NCBI GenBank assembly: GCA_002839415.1
Contig: PGXZ01000001.1
Location: 57,259 to 121,258, forward strand
Direction of reading: 5' to 3'
Length of the DNA stretch: 64,000 nucleotides
From: Candidatus Saccharibacteria bacterium HGW-Saccharibacteria-1
GTDB taxonomy: Bacteria > Patescibacteriota > Saccharimonadia > Saccharimonadales > Saccharimonadaceae
This document shows, one piece after another, positions 21,607 through 33,409 of the stretch (positions within the stretch are counted from its first letter, which is position 1; every line of letters starts with the position of its first letter). A program made the position numbers and the translations under genes. A model generated the notes under the pieces. The model searched no databases, was not told where the DNA came from, and worked only from the letters and a program-made list of their open reading frames with translations.

Positions 21607-21810
21607 ATGTCAACTAAAAAACTAATTCAGACCATATCTGAAAAAGAAATGGATCGAAAAGAGTTTCTAAAATACAGTGGTTATGCACTGCTTGGTTTGG
21701 TTGGTTTAAAAGGTATAGCGAATTTATTTATTCCTACTACAAATACGCAAATAAAATCTAAAAATGAAACCGTTGCCAGGGGTTTTGGTAGCGGAAAGTA
21801 TGGAGCTTAG
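21607..21810 (+). CDS. 67-aa protein with a Tat-like signal (DRKEFLK) and a Gly-rich C-terminus
   Basis: n-region, RK-x-FLK motif and h-region YSGYALLGLVGL. GGGAG lies before the ATG. Confidence 0.55.
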   Translation: MSTKKLIQTISEKEMDRKEFLKYSGYALLGLVGLKGIANLFIPTTNTQIKSKNETVARGFGSGKYGA

Positions 21811-21813
21811 ATT

Positions 21814-22338
21814 GTGGCCAACCACAGACTTCCAGAAGTAAATGGTGATGAAGGTACCTGGGGTACTATCTTAAATGACTTTCTAACTAATGAACATTAC
21901 AATAATGATAACGCGGGAGTGGGTACGGCGGATAGTGGTGGCCATCAGCACATTACAGTTAGGGCTGGCGCAACCGCTGCTGGGTCGGCACCTATTAAAT
22001 TGACCTCTGGTCCGCTGATGTCAACGTCCGAAGCTGGCGCAGTTGAGTTTTTGTCTGATAATCTTTATTTTACTCAAACAACAGGAAGGGCGCGCAAGGC
22101 GGTAGCGACCTATTATAATGACGCAAATGGCGCAACAGGTGACATGTATTATCGTGACGGTGACGGTAACTTTGCTAGGATTCCAATTGGCCCCGCCAAC
22201 AGCGTGCTATCGTCATCAAATGGAATTCCTATTTGGGCTAGTAACGCTCCAAGTGGCGATACTATCAATAACCTTGATGGTGGTTCAGCGATCAGTGTTT
22301 ATGGTGGTGCGCTTGCTATCAATGGAGGTGGGGCATAA
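21814..22338 (+). CDS. phage tail-fibre-like protein (N-module paralogous to 23462-24166)
   Basis: GTG start 4 nt after the upstream stop, with a GGAG RBS. Shares LPxVNxDxGxWGxILNxF...APIKLxSG...EAGAxEF..D.LYFTQTTG..RKA with the paralogue. Confidence 0.6.
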   Translation: MANHRLPEVNGDEGTWGTILNDFLTNEHYNNDNAGVGTADSGGHQHITVRAGATAAGSAPIKLTSGPLMSTSEAGAVEFLSDNLYFTQTTGRARKAVATYYNDANGATGDMYYRDGDGNFARIPIGPANSVLSSSNGIPIWASNAPSGDTINNLDGGSAISVYGGALAINGGGA

Positions 22339-23369
22339 TGGCTACCTTAATTCAATTCAGGCGTGATACGGCGGCTAACTGGGTAAGTTCTAATCCGACT
22401 TTGGCTCAAGGCGAGCTAGGGCTCGAGCTTGATACGAACAATTATAAAATTGGCAATGGTTCAAGCGCGTGGAATAGCCTTGCGTATTACCAATTTTCGC
22501 CAGAAGTGCTAATGATGCTAATGAGCTTGCAACCTTCTGACCCATCACCACCACCAGTCGGTATGATGAGATTGTACGCAAAATCAGTTACCGGAAGGAC
22601 CTTGCCTAAATATATTGGGTCTAGCGGTCTTGATAGTTTTTTGCAGCCTTTTTTGGCTAGAAATAAAATTGGATATTGGTGTCCACCTGGTAGTGCAACA
22701 ACTATTCCGGGAGTTTTAGGTTATACAGCTCCGACTGTAGTTGGCACGGCAACGGCTCGCACTGTTTCGGTAGTTAATCAATTAACTAGAATGCGTAGGT
22801 TGGGTTATGTTAGTGCTACGACTACTGGTTCGCTAGCTTCTATCAGGGTGGCAGCGGCTCAAATAACTACGGGAAATGGATCGGGATTAGGTGGTTTCTT
22901 TAAGATTACGAGATTTGCTATTAGTGACGCCGCAACGGTTGCAAATGCAAGGATGTTTATTGGGGTGTCATCAACCACTTCTGCGCCTACTAATGTAGAG
23001 CCCTCGACATTACTTAACTGTATTGGCGTAGGTCACGGTGCAGCAAATAGTAATTTGTTTATTTACTACGGAGGTAGCGCAGCCCAAACGCCCATCGACT
23101 TAGGTGTTAATTTTCCAGCGAATACATTATCGGCTGATGTCTATGAATTATCGTTGTTCGCACCCCCTAATGTAGCCGGAACGGTTTATTACGAAGTCAC
23201 AAGATTAAATACCGGACATATTGCAACTGGAACACTGACTGGATCTGGTGTTGCTTTGCCGTCATCAAACACGCTTATGACGTATATGTGGGCATATCGA
23301 ACCAACAATACAACAGCTTTGGCAGTTGGGATTGACTTAATAAGCGACTATATCGAGACTGACTCATGA
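22338..23369 (+). CDS. tail-fibre/receptor-binding-like protein with an Mtd_N/hyaluronidase-type N-terminal motif
   Basis: IQFRRDTAANWVSSNPTLAQGELGLELDTNNYKIGNGSSAWNSLAY. The start overlaps the previous stop (TAATG). Confidence 0.65.
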   Translation: MATLIQFRRDTAANWVSSNPTLAQGELGLELDTNNYKIGNGSSAWNSLAYYQFSPEVLMMLMSLQPSDPSPPPVGMMRLYAKSVTGRTLPKYIGSSGLDSFLQPFLARNKIGYWCPPGSATTIPGVLGYTAPTVVGTATARTVSVVNQLTRMRRLGYVSATTTGSLASIRVAAAQITTGNGSGLGGFFKITRFAISDAATVANARMFIGVSSTTSAPTNVEPSTLLNCIGVGHGAANSNLFIYYGGSAAQTPIDLGVNFPANTLSADVYELSLFAPPNVAGTVYYEVTRLNTGHIATGTLTGSGVALPSSNTLMTYMWAYRTNNTTALAVGIDLISDYIETDS

Positions 23370-31212: not shown

Positions 31213-31218
31213 TCTATT

Positions 31219-32262
31219 ATGATGAATATTAAAAAAACAATCAGTTTATCTATAATAGCGCTGATATTGTGTGTCGTGTTTGGGGCTTCGTCCGCTAGCG
31301 CCGAATCAACAAGCACAAATGCTGCTCAGGGTATGCAGATCAGCCCGACTTTAGTAGATTTAAATGCTTCTCGTGGTAAAACATACGAAATCAAATTAAA
31401 CGTTGTTAATATTACCAGTTCAAATCTTGTCTATACTCCATCGGTAGATGATTTTACGGCCGCAAACGAGACTGGTGCACCAAAAATTACTACGGATAGT
31501 AATTTACCAACATCTGCTTCGATTAAAACCTGGGTTACAACCGTATCTAAATTAAACCTTAAATCCCAGCAGCAAAGTACAATAAAGGCACAGATTACTA
31601 TTCCTGATAATGCTGAGCCTGGCGGACATTATGGAGTATTGCGATTTTCGGGTGCCGCACCAGAGCTAGAAACTACTGGAGTTGGTTTGTCGGCTAGTGC
31701 CGGTGTATTGATACTGATTCGTGTTGATGGCGCTATTACCGAAAAGGCTGACGTTGCGTCATTTTATACTGCAACCAAAAATACAAAGGCTGATCCTGAA
31801 ATATCAGAAAATAGCTTTAACCAAACTTCTTTCTTTGAAGAATCACCAGTCTTGTTTGTAACTAGGATTAAAAATGATGGCAATATTCATATCAAACCTT
31901 TTGGTAATATTGAAGTTCGTGATATGTTTGGTGGAATAGTTAAAACTTTGAAAGTGAACGAAAGCAAATCGAATGTGCTACCAAAAAGTACACGTTTGTT
32001 TGAAGCGGAGATTAACAAAGATTGGATGTTTGGAAAATATACAGCAAATCTTTCGGTTGGTTATGGCACGACTGGACAAGCTTTAACTAATACGATTACT
32101 TTTTGGGTAATTCCGTACAAATTGATTTTTGTGGCTTTGATTATAATAACGACACTTATCTATATCTTCTCAATTATGCTAAAATCATATAATAAACGAA
32201 TAATCCAAAAGTCAAAAAATGAAGAATCCAAAAGTAAAAAACGTAGTAACAAAAAAGGTTAA
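31219..32262 (+). CDS. DUF916/DUF3324-like two-Ig-domain surface protein with a C-terminal TM anchor and a Lys-rich tail
   Basis: MQISPTLVDLNASRG..., ITIPDNAEPGGHYGVLRF, TM IFVALIIITTLIYIF. Confidence 0.55.
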   Translation: MMNIKKTISLSIIALILCVVFGASSASAESTSTNAAQGMQISPTLVDLNASRGKTYEIKLNVVNITSSNLVYTPSVDDFTAANETGAPKITTDSNLPTSASIKTWVTTVSKLNLKSQQQSTIKAQITIPDNAEPGGHYGVLRFSGAAPELETTGVGLSASAGVLILIRVDGAITEKADVASFYTATKNTKADPEISENSFNQTSFFEESPVLFVTRIKNDGNIHIKPFGNIEVRDMFGGIVKTLKVNESKSNVLPKSTRLFEAEINKDWMFGKYTANLSVGYGTTGQALTNTITFWVIPYKLIFVALIIITTLIYIFSIMLKSYNKRIIQKSKNEESKSKKRSNKKG

Positions 32263-33409
32263 ATCAAAAGCCTTAAAAGCAAAACCAAAATTGGTTAGTT
32301 TTAAAATTGCCGAACACAAACATACCGGCAGGCTGATACATCGCAAGCACACGTCTCACATCGCGCTTGTTGGCCTACTGCTCTTAACTGGCTTTTTCTT
32401 GTATGCCAATAAGAGCGTTGCTTTAGCTGAAGCTAGTTCTTCTGTGTCAGTGAGCGTTATTGTACCTGGCCCAGTACCAGCTATCGGCGCTGTTATTACC
32501 ACCCCAAAGGATGGTGATGTTATTTTCGACAATAGCGTAATCGATGTAAAAGGTACTTGTGCTGCTGAAACATTTATTGTTATTAAAAGTAACGACACTG
32601 TAATCGGCTCAACTCTATGCAGTAATTCAGGTGTTTTTGATCTAAAGGTGCAATTGTTAGCTGGCGGCAACACTTTAAGCGCGCTCAATTATGATAATCT
32701 AAACCAGCCTGGTCCAACTACGTCATTTGTAAAAGTTACTTTAAAAAAGGCTATAATTGAAAAAAAGGAGAATAGTGGTGTAGCCTCTAGTGCTTCGAGC
32801 TCTTCTACTAGTTCAACGGCGCAACCTGTAACTTCTATTATCCCACCGGTTACGCCATCGAATCCGTCGATTATTCCAGGGGTTAATTCGACGATTTCAA
32901 ACTGTAGTGACTACAAGGTCGCAGACTTGCCAATTGGTGGCGAACCTCGCGTATCTGTCGTTTGTGTGCCGCGTTTATTTGAACCAAAACTCGAACAAGT
33001 ATTGGGTGTGATTGTATGGGGAGGTACGCCACCGTACGCTATTAGCGTCAACTGGGGTGACGGTTCGGACGAGACGTTGATTAGTTTAAAATCCCAAAGT
33101 TACAAAAAAGAAACCTTTAGTTATAAAAAAGCTGGTAACTTTAATATAACATTCAAGCTAAAGGACAGCGATGGCAATACGGCGATTGCGCAGACGGCCG
33201 TTCAAGTAAATGGCACAAGTGCGAGCGCAGACGCTCCGATATCGTCGCTAGCCAGTGAACTTATAAATACATCATGGCTTAAGACACCAGTACCGTTTTA
33301 CGTTTTGGCCGTAGCGGTTACCTTTGGTTTCTGGGGTGGTGATATATTTGATCGTTATTTCGGCGCCCATAAGCCTCATTCAAAGCATCGAAAAATAGCT
33401 CGAACTTGA
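32219..33409 (+). CDS. membrane-anchored Ig/PKD-domain protein with a basic His-rich N-terminus
   Basis: N-terminal HKHTGRLIHRKHTSH followed by a TM. The PKD-like block is WGDGSDE...FSYKKAGNFNITFKLKDSDGN. There is a C-terminal TM. The start is uncertain because it overlaps the previous gene by 44 nt. Confidence 0.55.
   Translation: MKNPKVKNVVTKKVKSKALKAKPKLVSFKIAEHKHTGRLIHRKHTSHIALVGLLLLTGFFLYANKSVALAEASSSVSVSVIVPGPVPAIGAVITTPKDGDVIFDNSVIDVKGTCAAETFIVIKSNDTVIGSTLCSNSGVFDLKVQLLAGGNTLSALNYDNLNQPGPTTSFVKVTLKKAIIEKKENSGVASSASSSSTSSTAQPVTSIIPPVTPSNPSIIPGVNSTISNCSDYKVADLPIGGEPRVSVVCVPRLFEPKLEQVLGVIVWGGTPPYAISVNWGDGSDETLISLKSQSYKKETFSYKKAGNFNITFKLKDSDGNTAIAQTAVQVNGTSASADAPISSLASELINTSWLKTPVPFYVLAVAVTFGFWGGDIFDRYFGAHKPHSKHRKIART

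Follow-up and report, generated by a model that had tools for sequence, protein, structure and literature searches.

Within a 64-kb stretch of contig PGXZ01000001.1 of Candidatus Saccharibacteria bacterium HGW-Saccharibacteria-1 (the window), 13 genes named g1 to g13 form an array between the twin-arginine translocation (Tat) genes tatC/tatA and a guanylate-kinase-like gene and hrcA. We interpret this array, with a probability of roughly 70%, as a locus of the Saccharimonadales chromosome in which a type-I Pam pilus operon (module B, 26450-33409) adjoins a cassette of domesticated phage tail-fibre genes (module A, 21814-26446). The coordinates of all features are collected in Table 1.

Pam pili were described by Troman et al. 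(bioRxiv 2026, 10.64898/2026.03.03.709456; the Pam preprint), who solved two filaments of Ca. Mycosynbacter amalyticus by electron cryomicroscopy. The two-domain pilins PamA and PamB are joined by donor-strand exchange, with neither an usher nor a trans-envelope machinery. The system also has the membrane-anchored, FimC/PapD-like chaperones PamC and PamD; PamT is its single-domain tip pilin, PamE another pilin, and PamR an anchor resembling RbmA. A 'tail fibre-like protein' that co-localises consistently occupies the centre of the neighbourhood network and was left uninterpreted. The Pam pilus family and, noted in passing, the co-localisation of a fibre gene are hence already known from the literature, and the statement in a preliminary description of the window that no described system couples phage-type fibres to an array of this kind does not hold.

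The Pam-type operon

The secreted proteins g9, g10 and g11 matched the NCBIfam model NF058581 (CPR_Pam_pilin_C) with 147.3, 144.1 and 141.2 bits, respectively, at a cutoff of 55, and their N-termini are of the Sec type as judged by hydropathy. We retrieved 685 homologues of these pilins, all from Saccharibacteria where a name was given, and a PDB sequence search with g10 returned nothing relevant. No other ORF (open reading frame) anywhere in the window encodes a further pilin or pilin C-terminal domain (CTD).

The two putative chaperones encoded on either side of g8 and the pilin genes, g7 and g12, are paralogues of each other (24% identity; BLASTP, 2e-11; hhalign, 100%), and hydropathy predicts a C-terminal transmembrane (TM) helix in both. 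An AlphaFold2 (AF2) model of g12, with a mean predicted local distance difference test (pLDDT) score of 84.4, shows a signal helix, a pair of beta-sandwich domains and, at residues 300-343, a TM helix at the C-terminus; a PDB sequence search with the g12 profile returned nothing relevant. By this architecture g7 is possibly the counterpart of PamC and g12 possibly that of PamD. The final gene of the operon, g13, matched NF058578 (CPR_pilus_PamR) with 169.9 bits (E 5.6e-50; profile positions 4-172 of 297) and, weakly, the Pfam models Big_6, PKD and ChitinaseA_N; its place at the end of the operon is kept in 56 loci of the survey described below. No usher was found: the locus contains no large ORF of the beta-barrel type, and all of its 13 genes are accounted for.

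The small protein g8 is conserved at 46-71% identity in 39 species and shows a weak likeness to the pilin CTD at the last strands (hhalign, 65%). An exhaustive phmmer search yielded 281 representatives of g8 relatives, in which the domain is either solitary or located at the N- or C-terminus of proteins of 450-1288 amino acids (aa). In ten of these large proteins we found TIG arrays, NHL or RCC1 repeats, or Fib_succ_major, BACON or CBM domains. Judged by such domain combinations, the g8 domain seems to be an attachment module in surface proteins of the adhesin type, and for this reason g8 is proposed as a tip or adaptor subunit; it is the likely candidate for this position in place of PamT.

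To place the operon in context, 59 species-level loci around pilin homologues were surveyed and their ORFs classed with family hidden Markov models (HMMs). In 41 of the 59 loci (type I) we found, in the same sequence as in the window, the chaperone g7, the antisense gene g8, one to five pilins, the chaperone g12 and a PamR-like gene. The other 18 loci (type II) are more divergent, contain neither g7, which was found in type-I loci only, nor g8, and start with a gene for a protein of 240-258 aa. Four of these first proteins were tested against the PamT model (NF058579; cutoff 240); three reached 283-300 bits and the fourth 179. No ORF of the window reaches this cutoff. The right half of the array is a previously uncharacterised Pam architecture, which lacks PamT and has g7 and g8 in addition. 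The number of pilin copies varies among type-I loci, from a single one in 29 of the 41 to five tandem paralogues in L011 (6653-12112) and L024 (5840-11377).

Two further contigs, L062 (CAVXAE010000002.1) and L063 (DATHJH010000036.1), carry Pam-type operons with pilins, chaperone and PamR, and are binned as 'Gammaproteobacteria' and 'Candidatus Limnocylindria' (GC content 0.505 and 0.52, respectively). Either these are contigs from the candidate phyla radiation (CPR) that were mis-binned, or the Pam system is not as strictly CPR-exclusive as the Pam preprint states.

Taking the mechanism from the Pam preprint by homology, we propose that the Sec-exported two-domain pilins g9-g11 would be held by the anchored chaperones g7 and g12 and would polymerise by donor-strand exchange without an usher. 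The PamR-like protein g13 would tether the filament to the membrane, and g8 would serve as tip or adaptor subunit, PamT being missing.

The fibre cassette, the Tat genes and the gene layout

The preliminary description had recognised tail-fibre modules in the left half of the array, and this observation was borne out. g3 carries Mtd_N (Pfam, E 6.7e-15), its N-terminus matched many tail-fibre PHROGs and its remainder matched phrog_13925 (6.4e-28). In a tblastn search of GenBank phages, residues 77-342 of g3 aligned at 62% identity (E 9e-104) with the C-terminal end of gp22 of Rhodobacter phage RcKemmy, a 716-aa protein encoded between a GTA-TIM-barrel host-specificity protein and a holin, which is the tail-fibre slot. 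The same residues were 48% identical to a Curvibacter phage protein, and peptide patterns derived from g3 gave no match in IMG/VR. The identities of this distal domain (22566-23366; L175 7001-7792) imply that very distant hosts exchanged a receptor-binding domain fairly recently.

Phage-fibre motifs or domains were also found in g2, g4 and g6. The N-terminal module of g2 (g2N) recurs in g4, which is 58% identical to g2 across the first 106 residues and matched the g2N HMM with an E value of 5.8e-59. All 149 homologues of g2 are from Saccharibacteria. Two g2N motifs occur again in viral contigs of IMG/VR (140 stretches), within long fibre-like proteins, and g2 matched over its full length, at 26%, inside a 1253-aa phage protein. 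g5 is 37% identical to residues 2-139 of g6 (E 2e-23); no homologue of g5 was found in the loci of other species, and neither g4 nor g5 gave a match to phages. In g6, six 41-residue units with the motif D-I-Y-K-Q-T-x-G are encoded by a tandem repeat of 123 nt (25399-26002; 62-74% identity); the units are probably beta-propeller blades and matched phrog_10074 (E 9.6e-7). The C-terminal 36 aa of g6 are 61% identical to Rhodobacter phage proteins, and its N-domain is 30% identical to the N-terminal part of a 414-aa podovirus protein.

The survey revealed that the linkage of fibre genes to the pilus operon is conserved. Of the 30 type-I loci whose upstream sequence spans at least 3 kb, 29 contain a g2N gene (the exception has g3-like genes), whereas none of the 18 type-II loci does. 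The g2N proteins range from 126 to 1404 aa, have unrelated remainders and are accompanied by zero to five further variable ORFs. Linkage persists even where the fibre genes are inverted (L031, L034, L047) or have moved downstream of the operon (L035), and where the outer flanks differ. The coupling of fibre and pilus genes is real as conserved synteny. In L036 (2901-5153), a 751-aa g2N fibre carries a GDSL/SGNH hydrolase domain (Pfam, 1.5e-15) and in this respect resembles the receptor-destroying esterases of phage fibres. When Pfam was applied to ten long variable fibre proteins of other species, one had a GDSL/SGNH domain and nine had no domain.

Upstream of the fibre genes, g1 is a member of a family whose consensus motif is M-(D/S)-R-(K/R)-x-F-L-(K/R). 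The family also has a Gly-rich h-region and a linker that varies, while GFGxGKYG at the C-terminus is invariant; in the window the motif reads M-D-R-K-x-F-L-K and the h-region has a mean hydropathy of 1.87. g1 is located immediately upstream of 19 out of 31 g2N-type fibre genes, and in about 21 species loci, some of them deeply diverged and with co-directional tatAC, homologues of tatC/tatA adjoin g1 and the fibre genes. The Tat-like motif agrees with the earlier view of g1 as a Tat-signal mini-protein; its assignment to the fibre and pilus locus is less straightforward, as g1 tracks tatAC at least as much as the fibre genes. In L014 (13241-16003), two g1-family genes flank a divergent tatC, one fibre gene directly follows lepA and a second g2N gene (517 aa) lies downstream of grpE, an arrangement showing that g1 can travel with Tat instead of the fibre. 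A survey from 2018 reported a complete Tat system in just one Saccharibacterium of those then analysed.

An N-terminal hydrophobic segment was absent from g2-g6 and of the Sec type in all of g7-g13, according to hydropathy. We propose that g2 and g4 would provide a conserved N-terminal base module, and g3, g5 and g6 exchangeable distal, presumably receptor-binding, domains. The signal-less proteins g2-g6 may act as host-recognition fibres on the cell surface, exported in the folded state via the adjacent TatAC and possibly piggy-backing on g1, which would be a signal-bearing escort or membrane anchor. Tat export of folded fibres is attractive because the fibres are signal-less and probably oligomeric.

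The ORF list contains 13 solid ORFs, 12 on the plus strand and only g8 on the minus strand, and reproduced every gene and junction of the preliminary description. Public assemblies hold an identical contig with identical gene calls. Junctions include 3-nt gaps and overlaps of 1 and 4 nt, and g12 and g13 overlap by 44 nt. The array is collinear in a sister strain of 93.4% nucleotide identity; compared with this strain, the ratio of nonsynonymous to synonymous substitution rates (dN/dS; Nei-Gojobori) of g1-g12 is 0.02-0.20, and these are therefore real genes under selection, which is purifying. An optional 14th gene, which the preliminary description had allowed for, is doubtful, with a dN/dS of 0.48 for the 52-aa ORF and of 1.23 for an 84-aa extended form (24541-24795). 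According to Pfam labels on the identical contig, the flanks encode LepA and TatCA on one side and guanylate kinase, HrcA, GrpE, AckA, DnaK and DnaJ on the other. Homologues with a name are exclusively from Candidatus Saccharibacteria or Saccharimonadales.

Not every gene of the array can be expressed from one transcript, as g8 is antisense in its middle, and this argues against the co-expression as one unit that the preliminary description had suggested. The start codons of g8 and g9 diverge and are 48 nt apart, so that the two promoters must overlap in this interval (27910-27957) or sit within coding regions; a promoter and terminator consensus scan found fewer sites than in shuffled sequence and was uninformative. 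In the sister strain, tatC is represented by two ORFs of 194 and 128 aa (L174 8379-9406), as a result of a frameshift, pseudogene formation or an assembly error, and the 3' end of g2 is frameshifted (183 instead of 174 aa). Elsewhere in the window, three tRNA genes with CAT anticodon lie inside 8 kb, at 5756-5831 (-), 6399-6476 (+) and 13392-13468 (-); these are presumably the initiator, the elongator and the lysidine-modified Ile tRNA. A 460-aa ORF with a YLDD motif at 42469-43851 was picked out by a crude reverse-transcriptase screen only.

Table 1. Features of the array and the adjacent Tat genes (positions within the window).
Feature	Position	Strand	Description	Basis or remark
tatC	20192-21217	-	Tat gene, divergent from g1	Pfam TatC on identical contig
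tatA	21238-21435	-	Tat gene, divergent from g1	Pfam TatA_B_E on identical contig
g1	21607-21810	+	67 aa, Tat-motif mini-protein	motif alignment; NF038009, 37.5 bits; dN/dS 0.20
g2	21814-22338	+	174 aa, fibre-base protein	N-terminal g2N module of about 145 aa; dN/dS 0.08
g3	22338-23369	+	343 aa, fibre protein	N-terminal Mtd_N and phage tail-fibre distal domain
g4	23462-24166	+	234 aa, second g2N-type protein	different C-terminal part; dN/dS 0.12
g5	24194-24625	+	143 aa, free-standing copy of the g6 N-domain	dN/dS 0.02
14th ORF	24637-24795	+	52 aa, doubtful gene	called on identical contig; dN/dS from few substitutions
g6	24797-26446	+	549 aa, g5-like N-domain, six 41-residue repeats, C-terminal KVWxGxxW repeat	dN/dS 0.09
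g7	26450-27352	+	300 aa, first membrane-anchored chaperone	WxLIP/PapD-like; N-terminal signal, C-terminal TM
g8	27349-27909	-	186 aa, small Sec-secreted beta-rich protein	conserved family; always antisense
g9	27958-28998	+	pilin	g9-g11 paralogous, two-domain, PamB-like size
g10	29085-30122	+	pilin	as g9
g11	30136-31212	+	pilin	as g9
g12	31219-32262	+	347 aa, second membrane-anchored chaperone	WxLIP homologue; AF2 and Foldseek
g13	32219-33409	+	396 aa, PamR-like membrane anchor	Ig/FnIII-type domains; NF058578

Objections and alternative readings

Several points weigh against the interpretation as a type-I Pam operon with an adjoining fibre cassette. Likeness to the Pam system of M. amalyticus was judged by family models and the description in the preprint rather than by the M. 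amalyticus sequences themselves. NCBIfam holds no HMM for the Pam chaperones, and the possible equivalence of g7 and g12 to PamC and PamD is a matter of fold and architecture. The NF058578 score of g13 is below the equivalog cutoff of 300. g8 matched neither the PamT model (E<=10) nor WxL nor, with its profile, PDB sequences, and its likeness to PamT and to the pilin CTD is not significant. The AF2 model of g2 is poor (pLDDT, 67.5), and Foldseek searches with it against viral and PDB libraries returned nothing at E<1e-3; the weak viral list obtained with this poor model, none of it at E<1e-3, is enriched in Mtd_N and tail-fibre proteins. Most members of the g1 family have R-K and few R-R in the motif, the match of g1 to NF038009 ('Tat system-associated protein') is sub-threshold (37.5 bits; cutoff 100), and in L014, L047 and L051 g1 keeps the company of tatC and not of the fibre gene. 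Phylogeny confounds the link between fibres and type I, since the type-II loci are the more distant relatives. Finally, the data above establish family assignments, folds, synteny and purifying selection; from these we infer the role of g8, the function of the fibres, their export route and any physical link to the pilus, and extracellular fibres that touch the pilus are putative.

The fibre cassette and the pilus operon might be functionally independent neighbours, their adjacency being just a conserved gene order in the clade. The fibres would then form a system of their own, on the surface or secreted, or they would be a toxin or receptor-destroying enzyme of phage origin. The different export signals of g2-g6 and g7-g13, the interruption of the array by g8 on the other strand, the downstream or inverted fibre genes in L035 and in L031, L034 and L047, and the existence of type-II Pam operons that do without fibres all speak for this reading. 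However, linkage was retained in 29 of 30 species across inversions and differing outer flanks, fibres co-occur specifically with the g7/g8 variant that has no PamT, and the Pam preprint separately places a tail fibre-like protein centrally in its neighbourhood network. We consider functional independence unlikely, though it deserves to be taken seriously.

The right half of the array might instead encode a wall-bound complex of the Csc/WxL type, in which DUF916/DUF3324 proteins hold subunits that attach to the wall by WxL-like C-domains and no filament is formed. Such clusters are known from Lactobacillales and Bacillales (PDB 9i1y, 9i25; PMC10599100), and their WxLIP proteins consist of DUF916, DUF3324 and a TM segment. 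The preliminary description had regarded g7 and g12 as DUF916-like, membrane-anchored proteins with two immunoglobulin (Ig)-like domains, and in this it was right. PF06030 (WxLIP_PGBD) scored 24.4 bits with g12 and 15.6 bits with g7, below the cutoff of 27.3, and matched 29 of 40 members of the g12 family at E<=0.01 (best, 5.8e-7); PF11797 (DUF3324) never matched. With the g12 model, the top PDB hits of Foldseek were E. faecium WxLIP (9i1y, 3.6e-11) and 'WxLIP bound to long WxL' (9i25, 1.5e-9); RbmA came next, and after it the chaperone-usher chaperones CfaA, YadV, DraB, SafB, Caf1M, FimC and CsuC (E 1e-8 to 1e-6). For profile comparison, we assembled 29 genuine WxL clusters from metagenomes by means of the motif NQIDKxxxYFDLK, and confirmed them with Pfam. 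Against 23-24 genuine WxLIPs, the g12 family aligned in hhalign with 94% over 217 columns, covering both domains (81% over 105 columns of the N-domain with a shallower alignment), and the g7 family with 90.9%. g7 and g12 are homologues of WxLIP that fall beyond the limits of the Pfam family, and they share one protein lineage with the WxLIP of Firmicutes.

The likeness to WxL clusters extends to the order of signal peptide, two Ig domains and TM helix in proteins of about 300-350 aa, and to the parallel architecture of one small and several larger secreted subunits plus an anchored Ig protein in a monoderm envelope. The C-termini of the pilins and g8 (Y-x-T-T-L-T-Y-T-A-T, Y-V-V-Y-T-A-V-P) also resemble the distal WxL motif Y-x-T-T-L-T-W-x-L-x-x-x-P. 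The secreted proteins themselves, however, do not fit. The WxL-like C-domains previously attributed to four of them were not recovered: PF13731 (WxL) matched none of g8-g11 at E<=1 and none of 39 g8-family members, at 213-244 bits for genuine WxL proteins as positive controls. In hhalign, the pilin CTD, the pilin N-terminal domain, g8 and PamT-like proteins showed no significant similarity to the WxL domain (1.5-26% probability for the pilin CTD or g8), with only the last strand alike. By sequence, the pilins and g8 are not demonstrable WxL proteins; three of the four are instead Pam pilins, far above the cutoff of a family that has been solved as a donor-strand-exchange filament. The subunits in the window have no detectable W-x-L motifs, and no LPXTG-type protein was seen on reading the translations of the array, whereas WxL clusters often include an LPXTG CscD protein. 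WxL proteins have moreover been described as peptidoglycan-bound complexes and not as filaments, and in Firmicutes rather than CPR bacteria. We give a Csc/WxL-type complex a slim chance. No DUF916 motif was found in viral contigs, a search of the available literature found no paper linking WxL with Saccharibacteria or Patescibacteria, and the Pam preprint mentions neither WxL nor DUF916.

That the left half is a decaying prophage or tailocin remnant has very little probability. The phage-type modules, and a g3 C-domain whose identity to a phage protein is very high, would agree with such an origin. However, PHROGs matched only fibre-type proteins, and no capsid, terminase, portal, tape-measure, tube, sheath, integrase or other head, packaging or tail-structure gene lies within the block or adjacent to it; housekeeping genes flank it, GC content is even throughout, att-like flanking repeats are missing, and the fibre genes are all intact with a dN/dS of 0.02-0.12. 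The preliminary description had itself considered a complete prophage in related genomes; the locus is not a prophage, and its position is conserved in about 30 species.

Least probable of all is that g3 is the variable target of a diversity-generating retroelement (DGR), as in Mtd of the Bordetella phage: Mtd_N on g3 would suit it, and DGRs are reported to be common in CPR bacteria, but Mtd_N is merely an N-terminal trimerisation module common to many non-DGR fibres, neither a template/variable repeat pair in the region or window nor a reverse-transcriptase-like ORF near the locus was found, and the C-domain of g3 gave no C-type-lectin match and shows mostly synonymous differences from the sister strain (dN/dS 0.05).

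Relation to known systems and implications

Reading the array as a type-I Pam operon with an adjoining fibre cassette, its likeness to the system of M. amalyticus comprises Sec-signal pilins of two domains that carry the Pam pilin C-domain, a pair of paralogous chaperones of two Ig-like domains and a C-terminal TM helix each, a putative terminal RbmA/FnIII-like membrane anchor, a tail fibre-like protein in the neighbourhood, the lack of an usher and a host within the Saccharimonadia. The window differs from that system in having the non-homologous small antisense gene g8 instead of PamT, three PamB-sized pilins and no PamA-sized (55 kDa) one, the gene order chaperone, g8, pilins, chaperone, PamR, and a five-gene fibre cassette with tatAC and g1 directly upstream. 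The ATP-synthase/CorB neighbourhood of M. amalyticus was not seen; the flanks in the window are lepA and hrcA-grpE-dnaK. With chaperone-usher pili (Fim, Pap, CFA/I, Caf1, Csu), the array shares the two-domain Ig-like chaperone fold and, following the Pam preprint, presumably donor-strand exchange. In contrast to these pili it has neither usher nor outer membrane, its chaperones are membrane-anchored, and its two-domain pilins would form an extended filament.

The fibre cassette shares with phage fibres (RcKemmy gp22; the N-domain of BPP-1 Mtd) the Mtd_N module, the distal domain of g3, the motifs GDxYYRD...G.P.W and AGTAPLKL...LYFT, a conserved N-terminal base with swapped C-terminal domains, and the occasional fusion to an SGNH esterase. 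Unlike phage fibres, it occupies a conserved chromosomal position with neither virion genes nor a DGR, is vertically retained across a bacterial order and adjoins Tat genes and a pilus operon. Hitch-hiker co-export by the Tat system is known for partners of the HybO/HybC type, and the pairing of the small Tat-motif protein g1 with signal-less, probably oligomeric neighbours is reminiscent of it. A Tat machinery encoded beside surface-appendage genes has a parallel in the haloarchaeal tafi (PMC11821415). The tafi fimbrial subunit itself bears a Tat signal, whereas the pilins in the window are of the Sec type and the link between Tat and fibres is suggested by synteny. A Southlakia transposon-sequencing paper and an earlier electron cryotomography paper on M. 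amalyticus mention neither fibres nor Tat.

In an AF2 prediction, a beta-hairpin of WxLIP is placed into WxL (Hassan et al. 2023, PMC10599100), a principle shared with strand complementation by chaperones. A far-reaching extension of the present interpretation would be a chimeric host-recognition organelle, in which fibre trimers exported by Tat while hitch-hiking on g1 decorate the cell or a g8-tipped pilus in the lineage from which PamT was lost, and Pam and WxL derive from one ancient system. We regard this as a speculative and rather improbable proposal. If it were true, Pam of the CPR and WxL/WxLIP of Firmicutes would be two branches of an ancient monoderm 'anchored-chaperone' assembly system operating by strand exchange, and WxL clusters may likewise build polymers.

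New and testable are the homology of Pam chaperones to WxLIP, the proposed replacement of PamT by g8, the hypothesis connecting Tat, g1 and the fibres, and the exchange of receptor-binding domains with phages. The homology ties a CPR-only pilus to a widespread, poorly understood surface system of Gram-positive bacteria and provides a testable structural hypothesis. Adjacency to the Tat genes offers a concrete possible reason for some genome-reduced Saccharibacteria to keep Tat.

Saccharibacteria live on host bacteria, how they choose and hold these hosts is largely unknown, and the Pam pilus was solved in 2026 in a single species. Most environmental Saccharimonadales sampled here have a version of the operon that does without the proposed tip pilin and goes along with hypervariable phage-like fibre genes. 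As the preliminary description had supposed, the locus is a candidate for host attachment, now in the form of fibres and a Pam-type operon. The identity of a g3 domain to a fibre of a proteobacterial phage indicates that Saccharibacteria draw on the phage receptor-binding gene pool, and the fibre genes are obvious candidates for determinants of host range.

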